Below, in pieces: positions 15,875 to 33,635 of a stretch of DNA of 64,000 bases (position 1 is its first letter; each line of letters starts with the position of its first letter). The position numbers were made by a program, and so were the translations under genes. The notes beneath the pieces are model-generated. The model had not been told where the DNA came from. It ran no database searches and saw only the letters and a program-made list of their open reading frames with translations. The stretch is from Vicingaceae bacterium (GTDB taxonomy: Bacteria; Bacteroidota; Bacteroidia; Flavobacteriales_E; Vicingaceae): assembly GCA_019429185.1 (NCBI GenBank), contig JAHYJH010000005.1, positions 2,928-66,927 of the forward strand, read 5' to 3'.

Positions 15875-16984
15875 TTAAAAAAAACGCGCTTGAGATTTTC
15901 TGGTACCAAATGGATTAGGAGAAACATACCTAATACTGATTTCATAACCACCCTGCCCATTAGAGGAAGTTGATAATCCCGAAAGGTTAAAATCATAACT
16001 TACACCAACAGCAAATGAACCCATTTCGAGTAATAAGGATGGAATAAACGCATCACCAAAACGATAATGTACTCCAAAACTCATAGCTGCTCCATTAGAA
16101 AATTGAGAATATTTTGATTTTTCTTTTAAATTATACCTAAAATAAGAACCCAACACCACATCCATCGCTTTTTGCTGATACGCAATAAATCCTGAGGGTT
16201 GTACTGCCATATTTGTTCCCCCAACCCCAAACGAAGTGTTGGTATGTAACACATATCTAAAATCTAAGTTATCTTTATTTTCATTTAAAAACGAAAAATT
16301 AGGACTGGCAACGTGATGAATAGCAGCACCCACATTTACTTTTTTGCCTCCAAACCCTCCGTTATTAATAACCTGATTGGTAGTGTTATCTCCATACGTA
16401 TAAGAAACACCCACTGCAAAATCGGGTTCAAAAAAAGAAGTGTTGTTAAAATTTTCGCCCGAAGCAAAGTTATCATTATGCCCCGAACCATCAAATTGGT
16501 TATCGGAACGAATTTTATCTATGGACAAACTGCTTTGTAAAAAACCAGCTTGCACTCCTGCTGATAAATAGCTCGATTGATCTAATTTAATATGATAAGC
16601 AACTGTTAAATTAACTACTGTTGTTCCTAAACTAAGGTTACCTGCTTTATCGGAATATGCCGTAATTCCCCCACCAAAAAAATTATCCTTTTTAGCATTT
16701 TTATTAAAGTGCATATCAAACGATGCTCCATACGTTCTAAAAGGATTAGAAGTAACGCTGCTCCATTGGTCTCGGTAGTTAATGATGGCTCTCGAATCAC
16801 CGCCAAATTTTCCCGCTTGCGATGGGTCTAACTGTAAAGGAACCATAGTAAATTGTGAAAAGTGCATGTCTTGGGCAGAAGCCCACCCCGACCCTCCCGA
16901 AGGGAGGGAGAGCCAACACACAAGGCTGATGCAGAGTATTCTGATTAGATTTTTCATAGAAATTGATTTTTTAAATAAGTTCAT
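15875..16984 (-). CDS. PorP/SprF-family type IX secretion system membrane protein
   Basis: AQDMHFSQF...PLQLDPSQAG N-terminal signature and beta-barrel-like composition. It lies directly downstream of a type B cargo gene. Likely true start is the Met at 16957 (MKNLIRIL). Confidence 0.85.
   Translation of the reverse strand: MNLFKKSISMKNLIRILCISLVCWLSLPSGGSGWASAQDMHFSQFTMVPLQLDPSQAGKFGGDSRAIINYRDQWSSVTSNPFRTYGASFDMHFNKNAKKDNFFGGGITAYSDKAGNLSLGTTVVNLTVAYHIKLDQSSYLSAGVQAGFLQSSLSIDKIRSDNQFDGSGHNDNFASGENFNNTSFFEPDFAVGVSYTYGDNTTNQVINNGGFGGKKVNVGAAIHHVASPNFSFLNENKDNLDFRYVLHTNTSFGVGGTNMAVQPSGFIAYQQKAMDVVLGSYFRYNLKEKSKYSQFSNGAAMSFGVHYRFGDAFIPSLLLEMGSFAVGVSYDFNLSGLSTSSNGQGGYEISIRYVSPNPFGTRKSQARFF
16881..16930 (-). 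repeat. GC-rich hairpin repeat, copy inside the PorP/SprF signal-peptide coding region
   Basis: gcccaccccgaccctcccgaagggagggagagccaacacacaaggctgat. Stem ccctccc/gggaggg at 16892-16908. Confidence 0.85.
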
Positions 16985-17156
16985 AATTTATTGTTTTTAA
17001 TTATTTATATTAAAAATGGATACGTTGTTTTTATACTATCGTTTTTGCCATCACTACCTCTAACGCTACCCCTGTAAAAAATCCCAAATCTGCCTCGCAG
17101 ATTTTCCTCTTAATCTCAAACCCCTAAAGGGGAGAGCCTTCTCTGTCATCGCTGCC

Positions 17157-17279
17157 CATCGCTACCCCCGACCCCTAAAGGGGCGTGCCTACACTACTGC
17201 TTGCGTAGGATCCCTTTAGGGAGTAAGGGTGTGCGAGGGCTTTTAAGTTTTATTTATTTTTCATTCAGCACGTCATTGG
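17157..17279 (+). repeat. R-repeat copy 1 (structured intergenic repeat with CCCCTAAAGGGG / TCCCTTTAGGGA arms)
   Basis: Aligns by eye with 22500-22680 and 23542-23692. Shared core: ccctttaggga..aagggtgtgcgagggctttt.ag.tttat. Confidence 0.75.
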
Positions 17280-17309
17280 ATTTTATACACCTTCGCTCCT
17301 CTACGTAAG

Positions 17310-17336
17310 CCCTCCCTTCGGGAGGGTTGGGTGGGC
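17310..17336 (+). repeat. GC-rich hairpin repeat, inverted copy abutting the stop codon of the type B cargo gene
   Basis: ccctcccttcgggagggttgggtgggc is the reverse complement of 16881-16908, apart from one indel and one mismatch. Confidence 0.85.
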
Positions 17337-17338
17337 TT

Positions 17339-19816
17339 CTACCTTATCAAACTCACATCGCCACTTTCAGTAACTGTTTTTCCGTTTAAAAAAGTAGCTT
17401 CCAACACATACACAAAAACGGCTGTATTTTGATTTGCTCCTTTGTATGTTCCATCCCAGCCTTGATTTACATCATTTATTTCAAATACTTTGTTGCCCCA
17501 ACGGTTATAAATTTTTACCGATAAGGTTGCTATGCCTTTGCCTCGCACAAAAAACACATCATTTTCTCCGTCTCCATTGGGTGAAAACATATTGGGGGTG
17601 TAAACAAAGAAATCGCAAGCTATGTTTGTTTCGTTTATTATGGCTTCTCCGGTAGTTGTACACCCTGCATTATCCTGAACAATCAACGTATATGTTCCTG
17701 CTGCTAAATTGTTTATTATCGAATCGCTTGAACCATTGCTCCAGTTATACACAATAGGTGTATTTAATGTAGTTACCTCTGCTTCAATACTTCCGTTATT
17801 TTCTCCGCAATTATCATCGGCTTTTATTAATGTTAGTTGTGGTGCAGGATTAATGGTTAAATCAGTTATAATCGTATCGCAGTTATTGATAATATCGGTA
17901 AATACTCCTGTGGTGGTGTAAGTATTTGTTCCTACTGTTACACTAAATCCATCACATTCCACTATAACAGTAGTGGTTTTATTGGGTATAGTCAGGGTTA
18001 AATTAAGTGTGATTATACTGTCGCAACCATTTGCTGCTCCTCCAATAAAGGTAACTGTTGGTGTATTTGTATTTGCTGAATAGTTAATGCCGTCTATCCA
18101 AGTAAAGGAATTACCACAAATGGTTTGAATATCTGTAAATGTAGCTGCTGAATTGATAGTTAAATTTAAGGTAACTATACTATCACAACCTTGAACACTT
18201 CCGCCTACTATTGTAAATGTAGGTGTTGTTGTACTTGTGGAGTAAGTTATTCCGTCTATCCAAGTGATAGATGTACATGAAGTAATTACATCTGTGCCTG
18301 TGGTTGCTGAATTGATAGTTAAATTTAAGGTAACTATACTATCACAACCTTGAACACTTCCGCCTACTATAGTAAATGTTGGAGTTGTTGTACTTGTGGA
18401 GTAAGTTATTCCGTCTATCCAAGTGATAGGTGTACATGAAGTAATTACATCTGTGCCTGTGGTTGCTGAATTGATAGTTAAATTTAAGGTAACTATACTA
18501 TCACAACCTTGAACACTTCCGCCTACTATTGTAAATGTTGGAGTTGTTGTACTTGTGGAGTAAGTTATTCCGTCTATCCAAGTAAAAGTATTACAGGCAG
18601 TTTGTATATCTGTACTCGTAGCTGTTGGGTTTATGGTTAGATTTAAAGTTACTATGCTATCACAACCTGATACTGATCCACCAACAAAAGTAAAGGTTGG
18701 AGTGTTAGTACTTGTAGTGTAAACAATATTATCTAGCCAAGTAAAAGTATTACAGGCAGTTTGTATGTCTGTACCTGAAGCAAAAGGATTAATGGTTAAA
18801 TTGAGTGTTACTATACTATCGCAGCCGTTGGCTGCTCCTCCTGTTAAAGTAAAAGTGGGGGTAGTAGTACTGGCTGAATAGGTTATTCCATCTATCCATG
18901 TTAAACTATCGCAAGCGGTTTGAACATCTGTGCTTGTGGCTGTTGGGTTGACAGTTAAATTGGTGGTTATAATGCTATCGCAGCCCAATATATTGGTTAG
19001 CGTATCTATAAATGTTCCTGTTGTGGTATAGGTGTTTGTTCCTACTGTAATGCTTGATCCCTGACAAATAACAGGATTTTGGGTTAAGGTATCTGTGGTG
19101 CAGGTGGTAATTAATACCCAAGGTGAAAAGGTATTTTGTCCGTTAAATACACCTGCTGTACCTATTCCTATGGTAACTCCTGCCGTACCAGGTCCAACCG
19201 GAGTATCCCAAGTAGTACCGTTCCAATGTTGTGCTTGTACTAAATTAGTTGGATTAGTTGTTGTGTTTTCTATTCCTCTATATGAAAATGTTAAATCGGC
19301 TGTAGCACCTGGTGCTTGTATGTCCCAAAAACGGTCTATGGCATAAACCACAGAATCTGTTATTCCAGCCATATTGGTAACTGGACCTACATTCGTGGCT
19401 GCCGGTTTAGGAAAGTTTTGTGGATTGGTAAACCAAGTGGAGATACTTACATTATTATTTCCTGCTGTTTTATTAAAGGTAAACGGAATGTAATCGGTTG
19501 CATTTCCTCCTACGCCAAAAGGAAACAAATAACTTCCTGTTGATGCTGCTGTAAGCCAAGTTATAAAATTATATTGATTTTCGGAGTGGATATGTCCTCC
19601 GGCAGGTAAACGAACAATACCTAATGGATTGGGTTGATCTACAACTATGTGTATGCTGTTGGCTGCGGTGCCTCCGTCTAATACTATATAGGCTCCATCT
19701 AATACTAAAGAGTTGTTTTGACAGCCCCCCTCAATCCCCCCGAAGGGGGGAAACAAACCACACGCAAGGCTAAGAAAAAATATTTTAGTTAGGGTTATTG
19801 ATGTTGTAGCTTTCAT
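17339..19816 (-). CDS. T9SS type B (CHU_C) cargo protein with tandem 53-aa repeats
   Basis: C-terminus FSPNGDGENDVFFVRG...IYNRWGNKVFE...WDGTY. Six core 53-aa repeats (TD.QTAC..FTWIDGITYS.STTTPTFT..GG...GCDSIVTLNLTIN). Confidence 0.85.
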   Translation of the reverse strand: MKATTSITLTKIFFLSLACGLFPPFGGIEGGCQNNSLVLDGAYIVLDGGTAANSIHIVVDQPNPLGIVRLPAGGHIHSENQYNFITWLTAASTGSYLFPFGVGGNATDYIPFTFNKTAGNNNVSISTWFTNPQNFPKPAATNVGPVTNMAGITDSVVYAIDRFWDIQAPGATADLTFSYRGIENTTTNPTNLVQAQHWNGTTWDTPVGPGTAGVTIGIGTAGVFNGQNTFSPWVLITTCTTDTLTQNPVICQGSSITVGTNTYTTTGTFIDTLTNILGCDSIITTNLTVNPTATSTDVQTACDSLTWIDGITYSASTTTPTFTLTGGAANGCDSIVTLNLTINPFASGTDIQTACNTFTWLDNIVYTTSTNTPTFTFVGGSVSGCDSIVTLNLTINPTATSTDIQTACNTFTWIDGITYSTSTTTPTFTIVGGSVQGCDSIVTLNLTINSATTGTDVITSCTPITWIDGITYSTSTTTPTFTIVGGSVQGCDSIVTLNLTINSATTGTDVITSCTSITWIDGITYSTSTTTPTFTIVGGSVQGCDSIVTLNLTINSAATFTDIQTICGNSFTWIDGINYSANTNTPTVTFIGGAANGCDSIITLNLTLTIPNKTTTVIVECDGFSVTVGTNTYTTTGVFTDIINNCDTIITDLTINPAPQLTLIKADDNCGENNGSIEAEVTTLNTPIVYNWSNGSSDSIINNLAAGTYTLIVQDNAGCTTTGEAIINETNIACDFFVYTPNMFSPNGDGENDVFFVRGKGIATLSVKIYNRWGNKVFEINDVNQGWDGTYKGANQNTAVFVYVLEATFLNGKTVTESGDVSLIR
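17990..18950 (-). repeat. 159-bp tandem coding repeat array (6 core units, three of them near-identical)
   Basis: aattgatagt recurs at 18151, 18310 and 18469, an exact 159-bp period. The protein repeat period is 53 aa. Confidence 0.85.
19724..19773 (-). repeat. GC-rich hairpin repeat, copy inside the signal-peptide coding region
   Basis: gcccccctcaatccccccgaaggggggaaacaaaccacacgcaaggctaag. Stem cccccc/gggggg at 19735-19750. Confidence 0.85.
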
Positions 19817-19822
19817 AATTTC

Positions 19823-21220
19823 TTAATTTAATGTTTTTAAATTATAATTTACCCATGTTTCTATATGTTCTATAGAGCTAGGACGCAATACTATTTTTCG
19901 ATTAGTGTCTAATAAAAATAAGCTAGGTGTAGCAAATACATGATAATCTTTAGCTGCTTTAGTTTCCCATTTTTTAAAATCACAAGTAGCTATAAATAGA
20001 AAATCTTTTATAAACAATTCATAGTTACCTTTGTCTGTATCTAAAGCGATAAAAACAACTTCTAAACCGTAATCTTTCCATTTGGGGTAATAATTGATAA
20101 TTTTTGGTATTTCTTCGGCACATTGTGGACACCAACTTGACCCAAATACAAGTAATGTGTATTCACTTTTTAGTTCACTTAGTTTAGTTACCTTATTATT
20201 GAGTAGAGGCTTGTTTATATGTAAATCAATATCGGGAGCTGTATTTCCTATTTTCATGGCTCGATAAATTTCTAATTGGTTCGTGATGTTATCATTTAAT
20301 TTACAACTGCTTTGTGTAAGTAATTTTAATGCTAAATATTCAGATGCTTTAAAAACACTTCGTTTTTCCAATAAATTAAATAAAAAATCAGCTACATCGT
20401 TCAATAAAACTTCATTTTTTTCAAGGTTTTTGATTAAATAGTCAGTGGAAGTATTCATTTGCAAGTACATACTATCCATAGTCATGCCGCTGTTTTCTAA
20501 CAACCAATAATGACTTTCTATTAAGTCATCCATAATTCCACTGTGATAAAGTCTATTATCATTAAAATTGATAGTACGAAAATCGGCTATGTGTTGAGGA
20601 ATACGCTCTGTATATCGTTGGGCAGATAAAGGTATGTCATCTAACAGTTTTCGTTTTGGTAAAAAATAAGATACATAAGTATGTGTATCCATTTTAACTA
20701 AAAAGTCATTATCTTGTTTTTCTATGCGATTTATTTCATTTTTGATAAGCGTATAAATTTCTTTTTGTTGTTTTAGTGGTAATATCTCTTCATATTGTGG
20801 TAGCAAATATTTCCAACCTGCTAAAGCTTTCTCTCGTTGGTTGTGTTCGATAGCGTATTGATTAAAAAGTACATTTTCATTACTTTTTTCAAATTTTATG
20901 CTGTTAGGTTCTTTCAGGTAATTTCCATGAATAATTATATTGGGTTCGTTAAGTAAAACAAAAAGCTGGCTTTTGTCTGTCGTTTCTAAATACCCCATTC
21001 CCTTATAATTAGTATCATAAATTAATTTAAAAAATCCTTTTTCATCGACACTTGTTTTTGCCAACGCTATGGACTTAAAACCATTGTATCCAATTAACTT
21101 AATTTCTTGGTTTATGTGATACATTAAATTACCTGACAGATGTTGAGAAAATCCAATAAAAAAATTCCCTACAATTAAATAGTAAATTAATAATATTGAT
21201 TTTAGATTAACTCTTTTCAT
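19823..21220 (-). CDS. TlpA-like thiol:disulfide oxidoreductase (thioredoxin fold) with N-terminal extension
   Basis: FGSSWCPQCAEEIP CxxC motif in the C-terminal domain. N-terminal signal/anchor sequence. Confidence 0.8.
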   Translation of the reverse strand: MKRVNLKSILLIYYLIVGNFFIGFSQHLSGNLMYHINQEIKLIGYNGFKSIALAKTSVDEKGFFKLIYDTNYKGMGYLETTDKSQLFVLLNEPNIIIHGNYLKEPNSIKFEKSNENVLFNQYAIEHNQREKALAGWKYLLPQYEEILPLKQQKEIYTLIKNEINRIEKQDNDFLVKMDTHTYVSYFLPKRKLLDDIPLSAQRYTERIPQHIADFRTINFNDNRLYHSGIMDDLIESHYWLLENSGMTMDSMYLQMNTSTDYLIKNLEKNEVLLNDVADFLFNLLEKRSVFKASEYLALKLLTQSSCKLNDNITNQLEIYRAMKIGNTAPDIDLHINKPLLNNKVTKLSELKSEYTLLVFGSSWCPQCAEEIPKIINYYPKWKDYGLEVVFIALDTDKGNYELFIKDFLFIATCDFKKWETKAAKDYHVFATPSLFLLDTNRKIVLRPSSIEHIETWVNYNLKTLN

Positions 21221-21259
21221 TGGTTTCAGTCTGTTATTTGCTAATTCATACTTAGTTTC

Positions 21260-21299
21260 AAAAAAAAATCCGACCGCTTCGCGGTATTTAAAAAAAAAT
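21260..21299. terminator. Rho-independent terminator with A/T runs on both sides
   Basis: aaaaaaaaatccg-accgc-ttc-gcggt-atttaaaaaaaaa. It lies directly downstream of the FISUMP-type gene. Confidence 0.6.
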
Positions 21300-21326
21300 A
21301 AATCAAATTGTCAAATTGTCAAATAA

Positions 21327-22381
21327 TCAGTCCTTAACGCACCTACAGCTAAAGCCGAACGCCTTACTACCGTTAGTGCGGCCCACCTGAGCACTATTAT
21401 AGCCCAGGGCGCGGTACCACGCACCGGTAGCACTACTCTCGGTAGCACTCCACCAGTAGCCGTTGTTACCAACATTGCTGAACGCGCCGCCCGTACTGCG
21501 GTTGCCACCCGGAAGAGCCGTGAACCCGCTGCTGTTGGTAGCTCCTGTGTTAGGAGTTGTCCAAAGCGTTGTACCGGTTTGTTTAAGGTTGCCACCTGTA
21601 TTTGTTCCACGCCATCCTGTTAAACTGCATCCCGGATCAGTACCAGCTTCTACTGCATTTTCCATAATACACCATTCTGCATCGGAGGGTAGGTGCCAAC
21701 CGGCAGGGCAAACCCCTTGTACTCCACTGGGATTGGAACTACTGCTTGCTGCTCCATTCATAGCTGCTGTCCAGTTATACAAAACGCCATAAGTGGTGTA
21801 GTTTGCTGTTGCTTGGGCGGTGGCTACATTGGTGCCATTGTAACCGTAAACATAATAATAAGGAACGGTTTCGCTGCCTGTTGCAGGTCCTACCACACTC
21901 GGAAGATAAGCGAGGTTTTCTGCCATCCAACACTGAGAACCTATTTGCACGGTATTGTAAACATTGCCATCACGGGCATCGGTAAAAGGGCTGCCACAGG
22001 TTAATGGTGGTGGTGTACCACTTCCCACACAACCAAAACTTACCCATTGTGTGCCTATATATCCCTGATAACAAGAATCGGTAGTGTTGTAAATTAACAA
22101 ACTTTGTGCAGGAGCTACAATAGCATTACGTTCTGTGGTGGAAAGGCGGGGAGTAATAAGCCTTTGTTGTTTGTAGGAGCAGCGTTTACATCTAACAATG
22201 CCGAGGGGTCGGGTGCTGTGCCAGTGGAGTTGATGCCAATATTTTGAGCGGAAGCCCCTCCCAATCCAGCGAGGATGAAAAAACACACCCCTACCCCTCT
22301 CAAGAGGGGAAGCCCACACGCAAGGCTAAGGCAGAAGATTTTAATTAAATTTTTCATAGTTTTATTGTTTTTTGAGTTCAT
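21327..22381 (-). pseudogene. Secreted FISUMP (Fibrobacter succinogenes major paralogous) domain protein, disrupted by a 1-nt frameshift
   Basis: The N-terminal part is in the frame of ORF 22115..22381 (signal peptide, NIGINSTGTAPDPSALLDV...NNKGLLLP). The rest is in the frame of ORF 21327..22319 (RLSTTERNAIVAPAQSLLIYNTTD...DGNVYNTVQIGSQCWMAENL). The switch is at the G4 run 22148-22151. Confidence 0.7.
22284..22331 (-). repeat. GC-rich hairpin repeat, copy inside the signal-peptide coding region
   Basis: cacacccctacccctctcaagaggggaagcccacacgcaaggctaagg. Confidence 0.8.
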
Positions 22382-22499
22382 AGTTTATTGATTTTAGTTG
22401 TTTATAGTTAGTTGGTTTTTCCCCGATAGCCATCGGAGTTGTTTATTGCTTTTTACTTTATATACTTTTTTTTTAATCTTTTATTATTGTCTTTGCTGC

Positions 22500-22743
22500 C
22501 TCCGCTACCCCCTACCCCTAAAGGGGAGAGCCTACGCTACCATGCGTGGGTGGATTCCCTTTAGGGATTAGTTAGGGATTAGGGTGTGCGAGGGCTTTTC
22601 AGCTTTATGTTTTTTAGTGTTGGTTATTAATTTTTCATTCAATGACGGTTTTTATTTAAAATTTAACACTTAAAATTTAACCTTTCCATAACAAAGACGT
22701 AACAATTTTTAAAGGGTTGGGTAAAAAAGTTAAAAAAGTTTAT
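22500..22743 (+). repeat. R-repeat copy 2 plus cassette-boundary repeat A
   Basis: Near-identical by eye to 23542-23756. Ends with ccataacaaagacgtaacaatttttaaagggttgggtaaaaaagttaaaaaagtttat. Confidence 0.85.
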
Positions 22744-22832
22744 GAGGTTGCGTTTTTATGGTGTTTTTTTCAAATTATTTTTTGTATTTTTGTAGTTTAT
22801 TTGTATAAATAAAAAAAGAAATAAAGAGAATC

Positions 22833-23105
22833 ATGGAAACGGTTATTGTTAAAATAGATACTCCTGCTCGTGCAAAGGCACTGGTAAAATATTTCCAAAC
22901 CCTCATTGGTGTTAAGGCTGTTGAATTAAATACATCAAAGAAATCACTTACCGATGCTGATTGGGTTCGCCCTGGCAGACCTGCTACGAAGGAAGAATTG
23001 GAACAGCTTGCCGATGACATGGATGCTGATAAAGGAGCATATACTCCTGAAGAAGTCCTAAATTTTGTAAATGAAGAACTGGCGAAATACCGAAAGAAAA
23101 AATGA
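22833..23105 (+). CDS. Putative antitoxin of a ParE/RelE-type toxin-antitoxin pair
   Basis: 90-aa acidic protein whose stop overlaps the toxin start (ATGA). Assigned by position and size only. Confidence 0.55.
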   Translation: METVIVKIDTPARAKALVKYFQTLIGVKAVELNTSKKSLTDADWVRPGRPATKEELEQLADDMDADKGAYTPEEVLNFVNEELAKYRKKK

Positions 23106-23389
23106 AGGTTATTTTCAGAGAAGCGGCAAAATGTTCTGTTCGTAATATTGTCTTTTACATTGAGGAACAGGGTTATCCCAACAGGGCGGAGAAATATAGT
23201 CGAAAACTTGTAGATTTTGGTTATTCTCTTGTCGATTTCCCCGATAAATACCCGATTTGCCGATTTGATCAATTTGCAAAAAAAGACTTCCGCTGTGCTA
23301 CATTTGACCGCACGTACATTTTTATTTACAAAATTGTAAAAAACCACCTTATTATTTATCACATTATTCATACTAAAAGATTAAATTAA
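23102..23389 (+). CDS. ParE/RelE-family (plasmid stabilisation) type II toxin
   Basis: 95 aa with the typical ParE-like layout (MKVIF...EAAK.....I..YI.......A.K....L......L..FP..YP), coupled to an upstream small ORF. Confidence 0.7.
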   Translation: MKVIFREAAKCSVRNIVFYIEEQGYPNRAEKYSRKLVDFGYSLVDFPDKYPICRFDQFAKKDFRCATFDRTYIFIYKIVKNHLIIYHIIHTKRLN

Positions 23390-23471
23390 TCCCTTTCTTA
23401 TTTTTTTTGACTGCTTACTCTCCTCTCTGTCCGTTTGAAGCCAAGCTTTTTGTGTAATGGCAACTACGTGT

Positions 23472-23527
23472 CCCTAGCAAAGACGACACAATTTTTAAAT
23501 GGTTAGGTAAAAAAATTGCTTATTTAT
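23472..23527 (+). repeat. Cassette-boundary repeat B (diverged copy)
   Basis: ccctagcaaagacgacacaatttttaaatggttaggtaaaaaaattgc aligns with copies A, C and D. Confidence 0.7.
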
Positions 23528-23541
23528 ATATTGTTATTTAC

Positions 23542-23808
23542 CTTCGCTACCCCTAACGCTACCACGCATGGACGGATTCCCTTTAGGGATTAAGGGTGTG
23601 CGAGGGCTTTTCAGCTTTATATTTTTTAGTGTTGGTTATTAATTTTTCATTCAATGACGGTTTTTATTTAAAATTTAACACTTAAAATTTAACCTTTCCA
23701 TAACAAAGATGTAACAATTTTTAAATGGTTGGGTAAAAAAGTTAAAAAAAGTTTATCCCACCCCAACCCTCCCAAAGGGAGGGAGAAAGTTTAAGGGTTA
23801 AGGGTTGA
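23542..23808 (+). repeat. R-repeat copy 3 plus boundary repeat C plus GC-rich hairpin copy
   Basis: 23542-23692 is the R-repeat, 23693-23756 is boundary repeat C, and 23756-23808 is tcccaccccaaccctcccaaagggagggagaaagtttaagggttaagggttg. Confidence 0.85.
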
Positions 23809-23867
23809 AAATATTAGTTTAATCATTTTGTATTTATAGGAATAATTTGTAACTTCGTAAAAAATTA

Positions 23868-24116
23868 TTGTTTATGGAACAATTATTAATAAATATCAGT
23901 TCACGCAACGAAGCTATGTTTTTAATACGTTTATTAAAATCGTTAAACTTTGTAAGCAATGTAAGGAAAATCAACAATAGAGAAAAAATAAAAGTACTTC
24001 CTGTAACTAATTTTACCACGAAAGAGGATTTTTGGGAAACATTTGGAATAGGAAAAACAACAACGATCAGCATTAAAAAAATAAAAGAAAATGCATGGCG
24101 AAAAACACAATTGTAA
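23868..24116 (+). CDS. Putative antitoxin of a VapC-type pair
   Basis: Small ORF that overlaps the start of the PIN-domain reading frame by 22 nt. No recognisable DNA-binding motif. Assigned by context. Confidence 0.45.
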   Translation: MFMEQLLINISSRNEAMFLIRLLKSLNFVSNVRKINNREKIKVLPVTNFTTKEDFWETFGIGKTTTISIKKIKENAWRKTQL

Positions 24117-24481
24117 TACTTGATACCAACATTATAATAGAATTGTATAAGGGAAATCAAAAAATTCGACATATCTGTGAAAAGATTGGCGAATAAAACC
24201 TTTATATCAGTGAAATTTCGGTTGCTGAGTTTTATTTTGGAGCGTTGAATAAAAAAGAAATTCCGCTCATTAAAAAACATTTGGATAAATTCCCATGGAT
24301 ACCTGTAAATGAAGAAATATCCAGCATTTTTACCAAATTTATGATTGAATACAGCCTTAGCCATAAGCCGTATATTGGGGATATGTTGATTGTAGCAACT
24401 GCTATTTATTATGATATTTATGTCCTTACTTTAAATACTAAAGATTTTAGGTTTATAAAAGGAATCAAGATTTATTCTTAA
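24095..24481 (+). pseudogene. PIN-domain (VapC-like) toxin gene with an in-frame TAA at codon 34
   Basis: ATG at 24095 gives MAKNTIVILDTNIIIELYKG (the PIN first-Asp motif), then TAA at 24194-24196. The same frame continues as NLYISEISVAEFYFGA...IGDMLIVATAIYYDIYVLTLNTKDF to 24481. Confidence 0.7.
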
Positions 24482-24506
24482 TTTAACAACTTGTCCCGAT
24501 TGCTTT

Positions 24507-24621
24507 GGATTTCAATAACAAAGATGTAACAATTTTTAAAGGGTTGGGTAAAAAAGTTTAAAAAAGTTTATCCCACCCCAACCCTCCCAAAGGGAGGGAG
24601 AAAGTTTAAGGGTTAAGGGTT
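24507..24621 (+). repeat. Boundary repeat D plus GC-rich hairpin copy
   Basis: 24507-24570 aligns with boundary repeats A and C. 24571-24621 is identical in its core to 23756-23808. Confidence 0.85.
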
Positions 24622-24952
24622 GAAAATATTGTTTTAATTATTTTTCATTTTCCCTTCATCTTTTCTGTCTGTCGTGCGTTTGGGTGGGTAAGCTCTTTTG
24701 CAGGTTTTGGTTTTAGGGTTGCCTGACGAGACCTACAAATGTACTTGACTATGAAGTATTTGAACTCATTAATACCTCTTGCTCAATCGTTTTCCAATAT
24801 TTATTAATCATATTTGCCAAGTCCCATATAAACAAGGTTTCATTCTTTTTCTTACGAAATGGAGCGTAGCGAAATGAAGTAAAAAAAAAGAATGAAAATA
24901 GGGAACAACGCAGTGAAACTAATCAAATAAAGAACAAAAATAATAGAATTAT

Positions 24953-24993
24953 GCTAAAAAAAATCCCTTAAAACTGAATAGTAATAAGGGATT
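24953..24993 (-). terminator. Terminator downstream of tRNA-Ser
   Basis: aaatccctta / taagggattt 10-bp stem, followed on the minus strand by a T-run. Confidence 0.55.
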
Positions 24994-25004
24994 TGATTGT
25001 TTAG

Positions 25005-25092
25005 TGGCGGAGAAAGAGGGATTCGAACCCCCGGTACCTTGCGGTACAACAGTTTTCAAGACTGCCGCATTCGACCGCTCTGCCATTTCTCC
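25005..25092 (-). tRNA. tRNA-Ser (anticodon TGA), CCA encoded
   Basis: Folded by hand. Acceptor GGAGAAA/TTTCTCC, anticodon loop CTTGAAA, long variable arm GTACC..GGTAC, T-arm GGGGG-TTCGAAT-CCCTC, then GCCA. Confidence 0.9.
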
Positions 25093-25297
25093 GCTGCAAA
25101 AGTAACAATTGATTTTAAATATGAAATAGTTTTCTACTTTTTTTGAAAAAATAAATTTAAACTCCTTAGCATCATATTATTAATTATTTTTGCAACCTAG
25201 TATTGATTTTTCAATTATTATAAATCAACCTCTAATTAGAAAAATGGTATAATTTTTATTACTTTTCTAACCTGATTTTTATTAACTTTGAATTTAA

Positions 25298-26749
25298 ATG
25301 AAAAAAATTAGCTCTTTACTTCTATTACTTTTTGTAATAACCTCAAGTTCTTATGCACAAAATTTAAAAGCATATTTTACGCATTGTACATTCTATTCTC
25401 CATCAAGTGGACCTTACATTGAAACCTATTTATCAATTGTAGGAAACTCTATCAATTACGTTAAAAATGAAAACAATGCTTTCCAAGGAAGTATTGAAAT
25501 CACTTACCTTTTTAAACAAGGCGAAGAAATTAAACAATTTAAAAAATATAACCTACTTAGCCCTGAACTGGCAGACACTTCATCTGAAAAAGTAAATTTT
25601 ATTGACCAACAACGTATTTCTTTGCCTGCTGGAAGTTATGAATTTGAAATTTTAATGAAAGATTTAAATTCCTCTCACCCTCCATTTAAAAACAATCAAA
25701 TAATCAATATCAATTATAATGATAAAAAAATGGCTATCTCCGACATTGAATTAATTGAATCATTGAGTAAAACAACTTCAAAATCTATTATTTCTAAAAA
25801 CGGGTATGATATCATTCCTTATACTTCCGATTTTTTTCCTGAAGATTATGAAAAAATTGCTTTTTATGCTGAAATTTATAATGCCAATAATTTAATTGGA
25901 AAAGATGAAAGTTATTTAATTACTTATGCGATAGAATCTTATGAAACTAAAGAAGTAATTGGAAATTTAAAAGGTTTCAGTAAGGAAAAAACAAAAGCGG
26001 TTTCTATCATCTTAAAATCTTTTTCTATTGTTGATTTACCCTCAGGCAATTACAATATAAACATCGAAGCTCGAGATAAAAATAATGAACTCCTATTACA
26101 AAAAAAGATATTTTTTCAACGCAGCAATCCAAAAGCAATATCAACACTTTCTCCAACAGATATTACATCCTCTTTTGTAGTAGAAATGAGTAATAATGAA
26201 TTAACTGATTACATAAAAAGTGTAGAGCCTATTTCTTCTGCTATAGAACTCAATTATGCTAGAAACCAATTGAAAGGAAACAATACAGAATTGATGCAAA
26301 AATATTTTTATAACTTTTGGTTTACACGAAACCCTGAAAGTCCAGAAGAAGCATGGAAAGCCTACAAAAAAGAAGTTGATATTGTAAATAAAGAGTTTAA
26401 CACGGCTATAAAAAAAGGATATGAAACAGACAGAGGAAGAGTTTATCTTAAACATGGTAAGCCCAACACCATTGTTCAGAGATACAGTGAACCAAGTGCC
26501 TATCCTTATGAAATTTGGCACTACTACAAAGTAACTAATTTTAGTAATATTCGATTTGTATTTTACAATCCAGATTTAGTAAGCAATGATTTCCCTTTGC
26601 TTCACTCCAATTTGCCTGGCGAATTAAATAACCCTCAATGGAAAGTTCAATTACACAAAAGAACCAATCAACCTATTGATATGGAAGAAAAAAACAATAA
26701 TGAACATTGGGGAGGACAATCTGATGATTTTTTTAATAATCCACGATAA
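25298..26749 (+). CDS. GWxTD-domain protein
   Basis: Signal peptide. C-terminal KGYETDRGRVYLKHGKPN matches the GWxTD motif with W replaced by Y. Confidence 0.7.
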   Translation: MKKISSLLLLLFVITSSSYAQNLKAYFTHCTFYSPSSGPYIETYLSIVGNSINYVKNENNAFQGSIEITYLFKQGEEIKQFKKYNLLSPELADTSSEKVNFIDQQRISLPAGSYEFEILMKDLNSSHPPFKNNQIININYNDKKMAISDIELIESLSKTTSKSIISKNGYDIIPYTSDFFPEDYEKIAFYAEIYNANNLIGKDESYLITYAIESYETKEVIGNLKGFSKEKTKAVSIILKSFSIVDLPSGNYNINIEARDKNNELLLQKKIFFQRSNPKAISTLSPTDITSSFVVEMSNNELTDYIKSVEPISSAIELNYARNQLKGNNTELMQKYFYNFWFTRNPESPEEAWKAYKKEVDIVNKEFNTAIKKGYETDRGRVYLKHGKPNTIVQRYSEPSAYPYEIWHYYKVTNFSNIRFVFYNPDLVSNDFPLLHSNLPGELNNPQWKVQLHKRTNQPIDMEEKNNNEHWGGQSDDFFNNPR

Positions 26750-26758
26750 TTTCTAAAC

Positions 26759-27760
26759 GTGAATAAAATAGCCATTGTAATTCTTAATTGGAATGGAAAA
26801 GACTTTCTTGAAAAGTTTCTTCCATCGGTGGTAAAGTATAGTAAAGATGCCACAATTATTATTGCCGATAATTGTTCTACTGACAATTCCATCGATTTTT
26901 TGATAGCAAACTACCCTGAAATTCATATTATTAAATTAAAAGAAAACTACGGATTTGCAAAAGGATATAATGAAGCATTAAAAGAAGTTAATGCTACGTA
27001 CTTTGTTTTATTAAATTCAGATGTGGAAGTAACCGAAAATTGGTTAAATCCATGCATTAAATTACTTGAAAGTAATACTAAAATTGGTGCTTGTCAGCCA
27101 AAAATTAAAGCCTTTCACAATAAAGCATATTTTGAATATGCTGGAGCAGCAGGTGGTTTTATAGATAAATACGGATATCCATTTTGCCGAGGAAGAATTT
27201 TTGATACCATAGAAAAAGATATAAACCAATATGATAATGAAACAGAAGTTTTTTGGGCATCAGGAGCTTGTTTATTTGTCAAATCATCCGTTTTTAACCA
27301 ATTAGGTGGTTTTGATGCTACATTCTTTGCCCACATGGAAGAAATAGATTTTTGTTGGCGAATGCAACATTTGGGCTACAAAGTGATGTTTACACACCTA
27401 TCAACTGTTTACCATGTTGGTGGCGGAACATTAAACAAAACAAATCCAAGAAAAACTTTCCTTAATTTCAGAAATAATTTATTGATGCTCTATAAAAATT
27501 TACCCAAGCAAAAACGATTCTCAATTATTATGACCCGATTATTTTTGGATGGCATTGCTGGAATTAAATTTTTGATTGAAGGAAAACCAAAACACACGTT
27601 AGCAATAATTAAAGCTCATTTTGCATTTTATAAATTACGCCACGCTTACCCAAGTAAAAAAATCCCCTATCTAAATCTAACAGGATATTATAACAAAAAT
27701 ATCCTTGTTTTTTATTATTTAAAAAAGCAACGACTATTTTCGAAAATAGGGTTCTGTTAA
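26759..27760 (+). CDS. Family 2 glycosyltransferase
   Basis: IVILNWNGKDFLEKFLPSV...DNCSTDNS...LNSD N-terminal GT-A signature. GTG start. Confidence 0.85.
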   Translation: MNKIAIVILNWNGKDFLEKFLPSVVKYSKDATIIIADNCSTDNSIDFLIANYPEIHIIKLKENYGFAKGYNEALKEVNATYFVLLNSDVEVTENWLNPCIKLLESNTKIGACQPKIKAFHNKAYFEYAGAAGGFIDKYGYPFCRGRIFDTIEKDINQYDNETEVFWASGACLFVKSSVFNQLGGFDATFFAHMEEIDFCWRMQHLGYKVMFTHLSTVYHVGGGTLNKTNPRKTFLNFRNNLLMLYKNLPKQKRFSIIMTRLFLDGIAGIKFLIEGKPKHTLAIIKAHFAFYKLRHAYPSKKIPYLNLTGYYNKNILVFYYLKKQRLFSKIGFC

Positions 27761-27854
27761 ATAATGTTAAATAAAATAGTTTTTTACTTGTTTTTTAATA
27801 AAAAAAGTCTAATTTAGAATATTGTAATTTTAATATTAAACTTAATTAAACGAA

Positions 27855-28052
27855 ATGGGCAGACCAGCAACAAAACCAACCAAATTAAAAGACGGATTTT
27901 ATTTAGAAATAAGAAACAAAGGTGCTAAATCTGGCATCAAAATAAGGAGAGATTCCAAAGAAGCTATGTTATCAGCTATTAAAGAATATGAAAGAGTGAA
28001 AGATGTAGTCGTTCTTGGCGAATCAAAAAATGGCAAAATAAAAGCAGTATAA
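27855..28052 (+). CDS. Small basic hypothetical protein
   Basis: 65-aa ORF with its own terminator. No recognisable domain. Confidence 0.45.
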   Translation: MGRPATKPTKLKDGFYLEIRNKGAKSGIKIRRDSKEAMLSAIKEYERVKDVVVLGESKNGKIKAV

Positions 28053-28060
28053 TCTATAAA

Positions 28061-28084
28061 CAAGGGGTCATGCCCCCTTGTTTA
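28061..28084. terminator. Hairpin terminator between convergent genes
   Basis: caagggg-tcatgc-ccccttg followed by ttt. Confidence 0.5.
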
Positions 28085-29536
28085 ATTGCTTTCAGCTATT
28101 TGAATCATTATTTTTTCTAACTTAATTTTCATCGCAGCTGCAGAACAATTGTAGTTATTAACTATTATAGCAAATGCAATTGTTCTACCGCTCTTTGTTT
28201 TAGCATATCCAGCATAGCTTCTCACTCGGTTCATGTAGCCACTTTTGGCATATATATTTCCTTGTGCAACTGTGTTTTTACCGATGTTAATTAATGTTCC
28301 TGATTTCCCAGCAACACTAAGCGTGTTGTAAAAATCTGTTTTATTCTTGCTTTTTTTATGCATATAAATCAGCACCTCAACCAATTGCTTTGAGGTTAAT
28401 GTATTAAACCTCGACAAACCACTTCCATCAAAAACACTCATACCATCTACATCAATTCCATTTTTATTCCAAAAAGAAAGCATTGCTTCTGTTCCTGAAA
28501 TTGTTGAACCCACTCCACTTTGCTTTAACCCTATGTGGTTAATTAAGTGTTCGGCATATAAATTTATACTATGTAGATTTGTTAACTTAACAAGCTCAAA
28601 AAGCGTTGGCGATTCTGTATAAGTTATTTCTTTAGTTTTTTTGACGTTATACAAACTATCTTCCGTGTTAGTTGATAAAAGTTGGTTTTTTGTTTTTACA
28701 CCTGTTTCATTTAATTTGCTATTCAACAGAAATGCTGTAAGTGATTCTGGGTTAGGAATAGAGCCTTTTATATTAAATTCATTTTTGTTTTTAGGAATAC
28801 TTCCTGACATAAAACGATTGAATTGGTTTGGACCGCCATAGATGTAGGCTAAATCTTTCCCCACATTATTACTAACTAAATTGTTAGTTAAAAACAAGTT
28901 GGGTATTAAGGGTATAACAGATTGAATTTCAACCTTACCTCCTACTTCGCCAGGTGATTTTAGTGAAAGGGTATAGAAATTTTCATAAATACTAAGACCA
29001 TTTGCTCCAGCCCCATAATAGTTACCAATATCACCCCAAATCCATGTTGAGGGAAGCTGATTATTAAAAATTGTTGCATCGGTAATTATAGCTCCGTTAA
29101 TTGAATCTATGCCTAAGTTTTTAACTGCTGTTGCCCATTTTTGAAAAATAGCTCCATAGTGATTTTGAAAACGATGCGAACCCAATGCAGGATCTCCACC
29201 TCCTTTAATAATTATATTACCATTAAGCACTTTGTTAATGGTATCAATTTCCCCTTGATATAAAATTGATGTTTTAAAACGAGTTTCTTTACCTAAAATT
29301 TCGAAGGCGGTAGCTGTTGTAAGTAGTTTTAGGGTTGAAGCTGGAATCAACGCTCTGTTTTCATCATAGAAAGCCAATGGCAAATTGTTTTCTATGTCAA
29401 AAGCATAAAAACTAATGGAAGCATTTTTTAAATCAACATCAGTAACTAATGCTTTTAGTTCATTTTGCAATGGTGTTTGTTGTCCTACTAAGCCAAATGG
29501 AAGTATGATAAAAATAAATTTTAATGCTTTAATCAT
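28082..29536 (-). CDS. dacB: D-alanyl-D-alanine carboxypeptidase/endopeptidase (PBP4, peptidase S13)
   Basis: ASTLK (SxxK), DGSGLSRFN (SxN) and KSG motifs in the expected order. Confidence 0.85.
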   Translation of the reverse strand: MIKALKFIFIILPFGLVGQQTPLQNELKALVTDVDLKNASISFYAFDIENNLPLAFYDENRALIPASTLKLLTTATAFEILGKETRFKTSILYQGEIDTINKVLNGNIIIKGGGDPALGSHRFQNHYGAIFQKWATAVKNLGIDSINGAIITDATIFNNQLPSTWIWGDIGNYYGAGANGLSIYENFYTLSLKSPGEVGGKVEIQSVIPLIPNLFLTNNLVSNNVGKDLAYIYGGPNQFNRFMSGSIPKNKNEFNIKGSIPNPESLTAFLLNSKLNETGVKTKNQLLSTNTEDSLYNVKKTKEITYTESPTLFELVKLTNLHSINLYAEHLINHIGLKQSGVGSTISGTEAMLSFWNKNGIDVDGMSVFDGSGLSRFNTLTSKQLVEVLIYMHKKSKNKTDFYNTLSVAGKSGTLINIGKNTVAQGNIYAKSGYMNRVRSYAGYAKTKSGRTIAFAIIVNNYNCSAAAMKIKLEKIMIQIAESN

Positions 29537-30021
29537 TAGTTTTTAACTTGTTTTATAGAAAGATTATAAGCGAGTTCAAGTTTTTTATATCGTTCTGCTG
29601 AGATAATACTACAACCACTATTAATTAGATTAAACACTTCTGTTTCTCTGGTTTTGATATAAGGTTTTGAGGTTTTAAAAATAGATAAATGTTGATTTTG
29701 TATATCTGAAGGTTCTTTGACTAAAGTAAAATCGAATTGTTTATTTTCTGAACAAATACCTATTCGTTCTATTTCGTTTTCTTTACAATGAAAAGCGTTT
29801 ATTCCGTTGTTGGTAGTTAGTTCTAAAAAAGTAACTTTTTTGAGTGCTTTTTCGATAACTAAATTGCTAAAAAGAACAATTAGCTCTTTTACTTTTTCGC
29901 TTTTTTGTTGGTTCAACAACTTCCATTCATCATCGTAAATTTGATTAATTATAAGGAAATGCTTAAACTCTTCCTCTAGTTCATGAAGCTCTTCGTTAGT
30001 TAATAAACGATATTTTAACAT
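29536..30021 (-). CDS. Hypothetical cytoplasmic protein
   Basis: Clean 161-aa ORF. Its stop overlaps the dacB start (TAATG). No recognisable domain. Confidence 0.55.
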   Translation of the reverse strand: MLKYRLLTNEELHELEEEFKHFLIINQIYDDEWKLLNQQKSEKVKELIVLFSNLVIEKALKKVTFLELTTNNGINAFHCKENEIERIGICSENKQFDFTLVKEPSDIQNQHLSIFKTSKPYIKTRETEVFNLINSGCSIISAERYKKLELAYNLSIKQVKN

Positions 30022-30040
30022 TTCATCTGTTTATATTTAA

Positions 30041-30163
30041 GCCCCCCACTTTCACACTTGCTCGCTCCAAAGTCCACTGGACTTTGTCCGCCCCCGAAGG
30101 GGGAGGATTTCCACCACACAAAGCCAATAATAATCAGCCTGTGTGTTAAACTTTTTAGCATGG
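30041..30163 (-). repeat. GC-rich hairpin repeat, long 5'-leader copy
   Basis: gccccccact...ccgcccccgaagggggaggatttccaccacacaaagccaataataatcagcctgtgtgttaaactttttagcatgg. It carries an extra inner hairpin, caaagtcc-act-ggactttg. Confidence 0.85.
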
Positions 30164-30244
30164 CTCGTTTCATCTTAAAATAAAAAAGGATGCTTCAAAA
30201 TATAAAGCTATCCCTTTTAATAATAAATACCAAAACAATAAGAT

Positions 30245-30724
30245 TTAATTTAATTCATTGTTTTTCAAATCATTTTGATTTACATTTTCATCTAAAAATG
30301 GGTCATTTGGATATTTATTTAGCATTTCTTTATTTAATTCAACATCATCAATTCCTTCGCCAAATAATTTTTGTTCTTCATCAGTAAAATTCCAATCTGA
30401 ATTGATAATTCCTTTGTTATATCTAATAGCTTTAAAAGCATAAATTCTAGCCAATCGAGAATGATGTAAGGCTCTAAAATAATTATTTTCAGTTAAAAGT
30501 TGCTTTGCAATTTGTTGGTGTTTCACTGCTTTAGACAAACTTTCTGTATAAACTTTGCTTTTTTGTGTTTGTTCATACGCATAGAAAACAACATTATTAG
30601 TTTTTTCTAAGGTATTCGTTATTGTTGCGTTTTCAGTGCTGTTTTTTGCAATTGTTACTTGTCCGAAAGAAAAATTGCTGCTAAAAATTAGTGCTAGAAG
30701 AATAGTAGTTGTAAGTGTTTTCAT
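30245..30724 (-). CDS. Secreted hypothetical protein
   Basis: Best start is MKTLTTTILLALIFSSNFSFGQ at 30724. The longer ORF to 30790 runs through the repeat element in an implausible frame. Confidence 0.55.
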   Translation of the reverse strand: MKTLTTTILLALIFSSNFSFGQVTIAKNSTENATITNTLEKTNNVVFYAYEQTQKSKVYTESLSKAVKHQQIAKQLLTENNYFRALHHSRLARIYAFKAIRYNKGIINSDWNFTDEEQKLFGEGIDDVELNKEMLNKYPNDPFLDENVNQNDLKNNELN

Positions 30725-30740
30725 ATGTAGATATTTATTA

Positions 30741-30826: not shown

Positions 30827-30970
30827 ACGTTTCATGTGTTTATATTTATTGAATGTTAATACTATTGTAAATCAAATGTAATTTCAAAAATAACAATTAA
30901 ATTTTGGTTAATTCTTAAATTCATTATTTATTTAAACAAAACAATCATTTCAGTATATTTTGGGTAATCT

Positions 30971-33620: not shown

Positions 33621-33635
33621 CTATTTAGTTAATGG

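Follow-up and report, generated by a model that had tools for sequence, protein, structure and literature searches.

How does one GC-rich stretch of DNA come to be read in frame within the signal peptides of three neighboring genes? This question is raised by a 64,000-nucleotide segment of contig JAHYJH010000005.1 (hereafter the window, meaning the whole stretch that was analyzed) from a Vicingaceae bacterium, a member of a family within the Flavobacteriales. The GC content along the 64-kb window is ∼30 to 38%. Three of its minus-strand genes, all for secreted proteins, each carry a hairpin-forming module in frame near the 5′ end, within the first 20 to 45 codons, as a first-pass annotation of the sequence had noticed. 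The finding is real and is larger than first noted, and the picture of an insertion is to give way to one of repeat-derived signal-peptide cassettes that turn over. Our favored explanation, to which we assign a probability of roughly 75%, is that the module belongs to a GC-rich repeat family of Bacteroidota, similar in kind to repetitive extragenic palindromic (REP) sequences and Rickettsia palindromic elements (RPEs), and that copies of it became part of the cleavable signal peptides of the three genes.

A shared module in three signal peptides

The three genes are listed below with the family matches and the conserved start of the mature protein.

15875-16984, minus strand: PorP/SprF gene, PF11751/TIGR03519 match; mature start at the conserved AQD[IM]HFSQF
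17339-19816, minus strand: type IX secretion system (T9SS) type-B cargo gene, CHU_C/TIGR04131 C-terminus; mature start at the conserved QNNS[IL]VL
21327-22381, minus strand: FISUMP-domain gene, PF09603; mature start QN[IV]GIN

The FISUMP gene is present as two open reading frames (ORFs) owing to a 1-nt frameshift (a base is missing) in a C4 run at 22148-22151, which could be a sequencing error, a pseudogene mutation, or slippage. A fifth C in this run would rejoin the frame (...NNKGLLLPRLSTTERNAI...). Between the cargo and PorP genes, and separate from the GC modules, the minus strand of 17086-17104 holds a terminator-like canonical hairpin followed by a T-run (AAATCTGCGAGGCAGATTT GGGATTTTTT).

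Read on the minus strand, the module has the same order in all three genes: a box, AGCCTTG(T/C)GTGT(T/G)G, comes first; 3-7 nt on begins a C-rich arm, which a loop of TTC or TTGA joins to a G-rich arm, and a second G-run stands a further 2-5 nt away. The exact box AGCCTTGYGTGTKG occurs in the window only at 16914-16927, 19758-19771, and 22314-22327, in each case on the minus strand. The copies are given here with their matches to R1, a covariance model of 36 positions that describes a 7-bp hairpin plus a G-run and that was scanned over the window with filters off.

16879-16927, minus strand: copy g1, PorP/SprF signal peptide, codons 20-36; R1 match 16879-16914, 46.0 bits; box AGCCTTGTGTGTTG, hairpin CCCTCCC/TTC/GGGAGGG, G-runs TCGGGGTGGG
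19722-19771, minus strand: copy g2, type-B cargo signal peptide, codons 16-32; R1 match 19722-19757, 40.2 bits; box, hairpin CCCCCC/TTC/GGGGGG, spacer ATTGA, run GGGGGGC
22245-22327, minus strand: copy g3, FISUMP signal peptide, codons 19-33; R1 match 22281-22315, E = 0.012, non-seed; box and hairpin CCCCTC/TTGA/GAGGGG with TAGGGGTG (22281-22327), then, 3′ of the hairpin, a second hydrophobic stretch ending GGGAGGGGCTTCCGCTCAA (G-G-A-S-A↓Q)

The g3 segment has an identical counterpart in a FISUMP paralogue of a related locus (L130). The module translates as SLVCWLSLPSGGSGWAS in PorP, SLACGLFPPFGGIEGG in the cargo protein, and SLACGLPLLRGVGV in the FISUMP protein, with the hairpin read in varying frames as PSGG, PPFGG, and PLLRG, respectively. 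The coding copies also share an n/h-region, MKNLI[KR]I[FL]C.SL[AV]C, which goes beyond what the non-coding copies have in common.

The module belongs to a structured repeat family

Eight copies in the window match R1 at E ≤ 2e-7 (all of them seeds; lowest E, 3e-12), and to these the scan adds the FISUMP copy, one truncated copy, and two weak relatives. This amounts to at least 10 copies per 64 kb, six of them wholly non-coding. The simple pattern CCCTTYGGGN{3,10}GGGG finds seven distinct sites in the window as compared to 0.00 in 100 shuffles. The copies and related clusters outside the three signal peptides are as follows.

17304-17339, plus strand: inverted copy overlapping the cargo stop codon (TAG, 17339-17341); R1, 37.9 bits
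23754-23789, minus strand: non-coding copy of g1 type with loop TTT; R1, 46.1 bits; in a 141-nt repeat by a ParE toxin-antitoxin cassette; repeat families D11/D12
24569-24604, minus strand: non-coding copy, same sequence as 23754-23789, downstream of a PIN-domain gene; R1 match
30041-30127, minus strand: interrupted copy, repeat family D17; truncated R1 match 30091-30103; a 42-nt nested hairpin (CAAAGTCCAGTGGACTTTG...) splits the hairpin from the second G-run
30739-30790, minus strand: non-coding copy with box GGCTTTGTGTGGTGG; R1 30739-30774; end 15 nt upstream of the ATG at 30724
33424-33478, minus strand: non-coding copy; R1 33424-33459; 25 nt upstream of a response-regulator/histidine-kinase ATG; heptamer array upstream
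39266-39320, minus strand: non-coding copy; R1 39266-39301; 9 nt upstream of a GNAT-family ATG; (ACAAAAA)n heptamer array upstream
17105-17260, minus strand: REPIN-like cluster (REPIN, a paired form of REP) of CCCCTTTAGGGG-type hairpin/G-run units upstream of PorP; families D14 and D20; weak R1 match 17159-17189
22498-22615, minus strand: second cluster of CCCCTTTAGGGG type, upstream of the FISUMP gene; families D14 and D20; weak R1 match 22502-22532

All seven non-coding positions that had been picked out by eye (30041, 30741, 33428, 39271, 23756, 24571, and 17310) are therefore real copies by R1. The claim that the same module stands at these sites holds for the hairpin and the G-runs but not for the box, which in the non-coding copies is related to, and not identical with, that of the coding copies (GGCTTTGTGTGGTGG, GGCTYTGWGYGATRG). 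Stop codons are present in the non-coding copies in the frame that corresponds to the coding ones, and the G-rich strand is the sense strand in 9 of the 10 window copies.

In an alignment fitted to the model, 98.6% of the stem cells are paired and four of the seven base pairs show changes on both sides. The covariation score was reached by none of 500 shuffles, and sliding the 3′ partner abolishes the signal, so the family holds together when aligned. Across loci there are seven distinct stems with perfect complementarity. Box, hairpin, and G-run also recur together in non-coding DNA elsewhere, in three loci from Bacteroidia metagenome-assembled genomes (MAGs), where the unit forms the right-hand part of an inverted dimer (L036, L090, and L115), and in three soil-metagenome contigs (L129, L135, and L137). 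The metagenome scan for box plus hairpin gave 10 stretches, of which roughly half match by chance, in DNA that is GC-rich; the informative ones are L129, L130, L133, L135, and L137. Because the reading frames differ, both orientations occur, copies lie outside genes, and stem changes are compensatory, the similarity is one of DNA and not of a conserved peptide, as had been supposed.

Against Rfam, the sole above-gathering match in the window is a tRNA, and at E ≤ 10 only generic long-hairpin miRNA-type chance matches appear. Full-text searches by sequence and by topic gave no published description of this repeat or of repeats within Bacteroidota signal peptides, in line with the expectation that the arrangement is undescribed.

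Predicted structures of the element

RNA folding gives the expected 7-bp hairpin, with energies of -19.7 to -32.1 kcal/mol for whole segments of 51-86 nt including flanks and with unremarkable z-scores of -0.6 to -2.2. On the sense strand the loop is of the C(UUCG)G type. The g1-type copies (16879-16914, 23754-23789, 24569-24604, and 17304-17339) carry GGGAGGGTYGGGGTGGG, a canonical G-quadruplex motif of four runs (defined as four runs of ≥ 3 G with loops of 1-7 nt). In the g1-type core, the 3′ half (17 nt, GGGAGGGTTGGGGTGGG) is the sequence of the VEGFA promoter G-quadruplex oligonucleotide, which has a Tm of 61 °C (PMC4856995); the 17-nt identity to 5′-GGGAGGGTTGGGGTGGG-3′ is a coincidence without evolutionary relationship. 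Since the first two G-runs are also the 3′ arm of the 7-bp hairpin, the two predicted structures compete, and ViennaRNA with its G-quadruplex model puts them at about equal energy (quadruplex -22.8 vs. hairpin -20.1 kcal/mol). The g2 type has two long G-runs only and no four-run motif.

Two known roles for such hairpins were considered and rejected. An intrinsic terminator does not fit, the hairpin being followed by TTGGGG or AG and no T-run; a terminator scan of 16000-35900, which covers all copies but 39266-39301, flagged only the copy at 33438, weakly and on the opposite strand. A START-type initiation aid, in which structure lies 12-20 nt after the AUG, does not fit either, as the hairpins begin 46-67 nt past the start codon.

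The module as signal-peptide sequence

All coding copies lie upstream of a conserved A↓Q junction, the cleavage site suggested by the orthologue alignment. By inspection and hydropathy, the PorP signal peptide divides into MKNLIR / ILCISLVCWLSL / PSGGSGWASA↓QD, and by inspection the other putative cleavage sites are ...ASA↓QN in the FISUMP protein and GGC↓QN in the cargo protein. The module had been placed between the hydrophobic core and the cleavage region; it is indeed upstream of A↓Q, but the core itself is in part encoded by the box (SL[AV]C[WG]L). Among 9-residue stretches, ILCISLVCW scores best, with a mean Kyte-Doolittle hydropathy of 2.68. The hairpin encodes Pro/Gly-rich turn residues that resemble a c-region, and removal of its 30-nt part in silico leaves a canonical MKNLIRILCISLVCWASA↓QD. 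Judging from these positions, the module should be removed along with the signal peptide.

In each coding copy, the frame in use is the sole sense frame that is free of stops and carries no more than one charged residue; R, E, and K abound in the antisense frames of the module, and in the g1-type core all six frames are free of stop codons. All three copies that lie wholly within a coding sequence fall in the first 45 codons, for which the rough probability is 7e-4 under a uniform position within those genes.

Orthologues replace the whole signal peptide

For each of the three genes, orthologues in related genomes are without the module and its peptide segment. Among 120 PorP homologues, the mature protein always starts from AQD[IM]HFSQF and the module is found only in P0002-P0005; P0011 has a decayed module that is 12 nt shorter, and the remaining homologues have unrelated signal peptides, e.g., LTLNFELQTLNC or ICQSAICNLQL. 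For the N-terminal domain of the cargo protein, P0127 (83% identity) has LSLACGLLPPFGGMEGGC↓QNN with the module present, and more than 20 orthologues of 67-80% identity are without it, their signal peptides being ordinary or AT-type ones that end in A↓QNN. A homologue search with the FISUMP ORF gave giant multi-domain proteins only, and the syntenic locus L138 served for the FISUMP comparison. This locus holds four FISUMP genes, a thioredoxin-like gene, a Por_Secre_tail-domain gene, the cargo gene, and the PorP gene, and the GC module is absent throughout its 21 kb.

A neighbor-joining tree of mature PorP regions (100 bootstraps) recovers the GC-type signal peptides as monophyletic in 0/100 bootstraps. 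GC-type P0004 is sister to AT-type P0016 in 98/100, and GC-type P0005 groups with AT-type P0009 and ICQ-type P0007 in 90/100. GC-type signal peptides are thus polyphyletic on this tree. In the DNA of sister pairs, homology extends along the upstream cargo gene as far as the stop codon and returns at TTGC(C/T)CAAGAC, which encodes the A-Q-D cleavage site; the leader and the whole signal peptide in between cannot be aligned, and the one gap that can be placed is 40 nt, which is not a multiple of 3. The proposal of a clean in-frame insertion of 24-33 nt must accordingly be dropped. Comparisons of filled with empty loci give replaced, unalignable sequence and not clean junctions. Because orthologues differ across the whole signal peptide up to the A↓Q site, the process looks like cassette-like turnover of signal-peptide DNA.

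Close relatives give examples of such turnover. Locus L001 encodes a mature PorP 91% identical to that of the window, and its PorP signal peptide has two tandem modules, the second of another stem subtype (CTCCCCC/GGGGGAG); L001 is also without the ∼230-nt cluster found upstream of the window PorP. The ∼75-nt double-module N-terminus is near-identical between the L001 PorP gene and the L130 FISUMP paralogue. Likewise, the window PorP gene and the FISUMP gene of L139 share CISLVCWLSLPSGGSGWASAQ, with ∼61/66 nt identical. The window and L139 are 97% identical over 519 nt around the copy that follows the cargo stop codon. This copy is CCCTCCC/GGGAGGG in the window vs. CCCCTCC/GGAGGGG in L139 and L001, and window and L139 differ there by paired changes and a 2-nt indel. 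Such differences point to modules being overwritten by other members of the family.

Relatives without the GC module build signal peptides of the same gene families from tandem heptamers, TTTAACT/CTTYRAA, which read LTFNLLLLTFNC or TLNFELQTLNC (L138 1504-1570, 8180-8300, and 10001-10090; L145 309-390; L146 954-1040; the dominant periodicity is 7). FISUMP and PorP genes of L138, although unrelated, have an exact 20-mer in common within their signal peptides. In the 5′ leaders of PorP genes whose signal peptide is of the GC type there is AT-type heptamer-like sequence, e.g., CATGAACTTTAAACTTTTAAACTAA (L002 7190-7241; L140 1400-1447), which may be left over from an older signal peptide that was displaced. 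In the loci compared, nothing matched a degenerate pattern, probably badly designed, for the signal-peptide module of AT-rich type, and a homologue search with a 51-residue chimera of two module peptides returned no candidates.

Distribution across Bacteroidota

The exact 24-mer TCCCTTYGGGAGGGYYGGGGTGGG was searched in one genome per GTDB species and was found in at least 120 genome stretches, with Bacteroidota only among the matches listed. The carriers listed are mostly Prevotella/Segatella (44-61% GC); others are Prolixibacteraceae, Polaribacter, Gelidibacter, Hyunsoonleella, Autumnicola, Pedobacter, Chitinophagales, and Saprospirales, as well as a MAG labelled Flavobacterium psychrophilum. 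The same 24-mer therefore spans Bacteroidales, Flavobacteriales, Sphingobacteriales, Chitinophagales, and Saprospirales. The five bases upstream of it, CTCCC, were outside the query and are conserved nonetheless, which extends it to a 29-nt PorP-type core, CTCCCTCCCTTYGGGAGGGYYGGGGTGGG. R1 gives 238 matches in 723 kb around the 24-mer sites. The family is not peculiar to this AT-rich genome; it is phylum-wide and is common in Prevotella genomes of 50-60% GC, where the core is abundant without any signal-peptide context.

Among 160 phylum-wide copies, no one rule holds for position or orientation relative to the flanking ORFs. Copies often overlap ORF ends and supply C-terminal tails, e.g., ...AHPNPPEGRE before the stop. 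Several Prevotella copies are in frame: a MiaB-like protein has an inverted pair of units inside its Radical_SAM domain, an efflux protein has a single unit separating its two MatE repeats, a SpoU methylase has one between its two domains, one unit joins DUF559 to IspF, and others join a CoxS-like to a CoxL-like ORF. Inverted pairs, which in Prevotella flank spacers of 20-400 nt, were seen in Prevotella and Bacteroidia MAGs (L020, L031, L036, L090, and L115); in the window, inverted pairing is confined to the related cluster at 17160-17260. Viral contigs gave four matches in 2.9 million, and phage carriage is thus not a major route.

Weighing of the explanations

We propose that the family unit consists of a 5′ pyrimidine arm, a TTY loop, a 3′ purine arm, and one or two further G-runs, with a TTGTGTG-type box before the hairpin in one subfamily. 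[quoted passage not shown] In the Vicingaceae lineage, copies were probably taken into the Sec signal peptides of three neighboring genes for secreted and outer-membrane proteins. Two features may explain their persistence. Selection on the reading frame may have favored the frame that yields hydrophobic residues (box SL[AV]C[WG]L) and then a Pro/Gly turn (PSGG, PPFGG), which would suit the h- and c-regions of a signal peptide. The segment also lies upstream of the conserved A↓Q site and so would be kept off the mature protein; a repeat would be tolerated in signal peptides because these are cleaved off. Turnover of the signal-peptide segments would follow, in the form of DNA cassettes that pass from gene to gene and from lineage to lineage.

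Several points weigh against this explanation. The covariation was counted on an alignment fitted to the model, which favors structure, the window is a small sample, and many of the relatives' copies are orthologous and not independent. No transposase, target-site duplication (TSD), or clean empty site was found, so mobility rests on presence/absence and replacement. For the cargo and FISUMP copies, it is conceivable that SLAC↓G is a lipobox. The three coding copies, with their exact box and upstream similarity unlike the non-coding ones, may stem from one cassette and not from three insertions. Finally, a selfish repeat would not usually keep the same 24-29 nt across several orders, which hints at a host function or at recognition by some conserved factor of the host.

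Two alternatives come closest. A single segment that coded for a signal peptide and already held a hairpin unit may have been carried by recombination or gene conversion from the 5′ end of one secreted-protein gene to that of another, in which case the coding copies would not be independent and some boxed non-coding copies would be decayed 5′ gene fragments. The restriction of the exact box to coding copies argues for this, as do the ∼79% identity of g1 and g3 from the ATG on, the 26/30 nt shared by g2 and g3 upstream of the box, and the sequences shared between PorP and FISUMP genes (the window with L139, and L001 with L130). The copies at 30760 and 30097 can also be read as ATG-started mini-ORFs in the same frame, and the 20-mer that FISUMP and PorP signal peptides share in L138 without a GC element indicates that cassette sharing happens anyway. 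As the coding copies share more with each other, cassette spread is as likely as three independent insertions for those copies. The hairpin subtypes, however, differ among the three, and non-coding copies stand after stop codons, reversed, as inverted dimers, and upstream of genes for cytoplasmic proteins. The process would account for spread among signal peptides but not for the origin of the repeat or for its abundance in Prevotella outside any such context. As a full account we give it somewhat less than an even chance. The other alternative, which we consider unlikely, is a functional nucleic-acid element kept by the host, i.e., a cis-acting hairpin/G-quadruplex switch, an mRNA-end stabilizer, or a site bound by a conserved protein of Bacteroidota, with placement at 5′ ends, signal peptides included, reflecting function. 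It would fit the 24-29 nt unchanged across several orders and matched, among those listed, in Bacteroidota only, the bias of the G-rich strand to the sense strand, the four non-coding copies that end 9-25 nt before a start codon, the loop type, and the identity to the VEGFA oligonucleotide with a predicted quadruplex close to the hairpin in energy. It sits poorly with the variable orientation and position of the 160 copies, the free loss of copies between close relatives, the g2 subtype that has no four-run motif, the modest fold z-scores, and the absence of an Rfam family and of a T-run. A further reading, which links two claims and goes beyond one more REP-like repeat, is likewise improbable: the 29-nt core would be a Bacteroidota-specific functional element read by a conserved host factor (candidates are a hairpin/G-quadruplex switch and a Pif1-type helicase or recombinase site), and Vicingaceae and relatives would repeatedly create or replace signal peptides from 5′-adjacent repeat DNA, drawing in some lineages on GC hairpin modules and in others on arrays of tandem heptamers (e.g., TTTAACT read LTFNLLLLTFN).

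The remaining two explanations carry little weight. Bacteroidota lipoboxes are loose, and SLACG recurs in the cargo and FISUMP proteins, P0127, and L130, as would be expected of a lineage-specific sorting or lipoprotein signal (an SLAC↓G lipobox with a Pro/Gly tether) under selection at the protein level. PorP, on the other hand, has SLVC↓W with V at -1 and belongs to an outer-membrane barrel family, orthologues use SPase-I-type A↓Q sites at the same alignment position, and the hairpin frames differ. The idea is already contradicted by the non-coding copies, with stops in the corresponding frame, and by the occurrence of the same DNA in reverse; we regard it as very improbable. Chance low-complexity G/C runs in an AT-rich genome would explain why short C and G runs pair trivially and why fold z-scores are modest, but they are already refuted by seven sites where none are expected, R1 E values down to 3e-12, the covariation, and an exact 24-mer in at least 120 loci elsewhere.

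Other repeats in the window

A second hairpin element (CAAAGTCCAGTGGACTTTG or CAAACATCCAGTGGATGTTTG) stands at one same point in two GC modules, after the hairpin and before the second G-run (window 30048-30090; L130, minus strand, just past the hairpin of the signal-peptide copy at 2208-2239). The same insertion point inside two different modules suggests an element that targets the GC module. Repeats of 141-157 nt (22581-22737/23593-23749 and 23695-23835/24510-24650), each with a GC module and a promoter-like 52-nt unit that has four copies, flank small genes of toxin-antitoxin type (ParE 23102-23389; PIN 24245-24481) in a manner that resembles a cassette array. A distinct but related repeat forms the inverted dimer GCCCTCGCACACCCTTA-CTCCCTAAAGGGA ... 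CCCCTTTAGGGGT(C/A)GGGGGTAGCG at 17105-17260, 22498-22615, and 23578-23627; that of 17105-17260 is missing upstream of PorP in the relative L001.

Heptamer tandem arrays of the (ACAAAAA)n and ATTCAC[CT] types lie at 33606-33703, 39318-39402, and 42947-43204, and in two cases a GC module and a start codon stand immediately downstream of the array. Similar heptamer direct repeats have been reported ahead of start codons in some Bacteroidetes, Beggiatoaceae, and Cyanobacteria (PMC4679880). Farther along, 51165-51341 holds three tandem copies of a 47-nt unit, each palindromic (AAACCTCCAAGGTTTTTGAAATCTTGAAGGTTT), and 47951-48067 is a tandem array of a 10-mer (ACTTCTAAGT/ACTCCTAACT).

Implications

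The family would add a phylum-wide and apparently undescribed small repeat to Bacteroidota, including Prevotella, a major gut genus, in which such elements would matter for assembly, annotation, and strain typing. Start and stop calls near the elements call for caution, since gene callers will lengthen ORFs or cut them short there. The PorP, cargo, and FISUMP genes would offer a concrete case of repeat DNA supplying part of a working signal peptide. Orthologues appear to swap whole signal peptides while the mature protein evolves vertically, which bears on the origin of secretion signals and on the trust that can be put in signal-peptide sequence as a signal of homology. On the improbable further reading, in which signal peptides are made repeatedly from adjacent repeats, they would be a regular route by which non-coding repeats become coding. 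The predicted competition between hairpin and G-quadruplex would also be a testable natural switch in bacteria.

Comparison with known systems

RPEs are elements of ∼100-150 bp that are AT-rich and restricted to Rickettsia. The resemblance to them that had been proposed is one of behavior: both are palindromic repeats found between genes and in frame within intact genes, as in the MiaB-like, MatE, SpoU, and fused genes of Prevotella, and both add peptide in tolerated regions. It does not extend to sequence, for which there is no relationship. Unlike RPEs, the GC module is 36-55 nt long, GC-rich, marked by G-runs, and phylum-wide; in the window its coding copies are confined to the signal peptide, which is cleaved off, and in place of a clean insertion there is replacement of the signal peptide as a whole.

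Like REPs and REPINs, the module is a short, imperfect, GC-rich hairpin in many copies that are mainly extragenic, with inverted dimers in some genomes (L020, L036, L090, and L115), and in-frame REP insertions into genes have been reported. REPs have a conserved GT[AG]G (or CGTC) tetranucleotide at the hairpin foot (PMC3733652, PMC6006769). This head is absent from the GC module, the foot of which is C/T-rich (CTCCCTCCC...), and GTAG occurs only near the weak CCCCTTTAGGGG-type units. A Bacteroidetes-specific subclass 2.6 of REP-associated tyrosine transposases (RAYTs) with "atypical" REPs has been described (PMC6006769), but those REPs are different, species-specific sequences without a match to ours (PMC6006769 supplement). 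No RAYT-like ORF was found with a regular expression for the HUH...Y(I/V)xxNP motif in 1.0 Mb of sequence; RAYTs are single-copy genes, and the scan covered flanking sequence only. REPs are also lineage-specific and co-evolve with their RAYT transposase, whereas the GC module is conserved in sequence across orders.

MITEs of Bacteroidota have been surveyed (PMC11602168), and the BrickBuilt MITE of Porphyromonas gingivalis is a described example (PMC4596501). The GC module is likewise a small non-autonomous repeat enriched in Bacteroidota, with inverted pairs in Prevotella. It differs in that no structure of terminal inverted repeat and TSD can be defined, single 36-nt units predominate, and viral contigs are almost free of it. 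The mobile GC clusters of yeast mitochondrial genomes are also GC-rich palindromes in AT-rich DNA that can lie in frame in a coding gene; with host and sequences unrelated, this is an analogy only. Taken together, the comparisons describe a small palindromic repeat that is able to be coding and that apparently belongs to an undescribed family.

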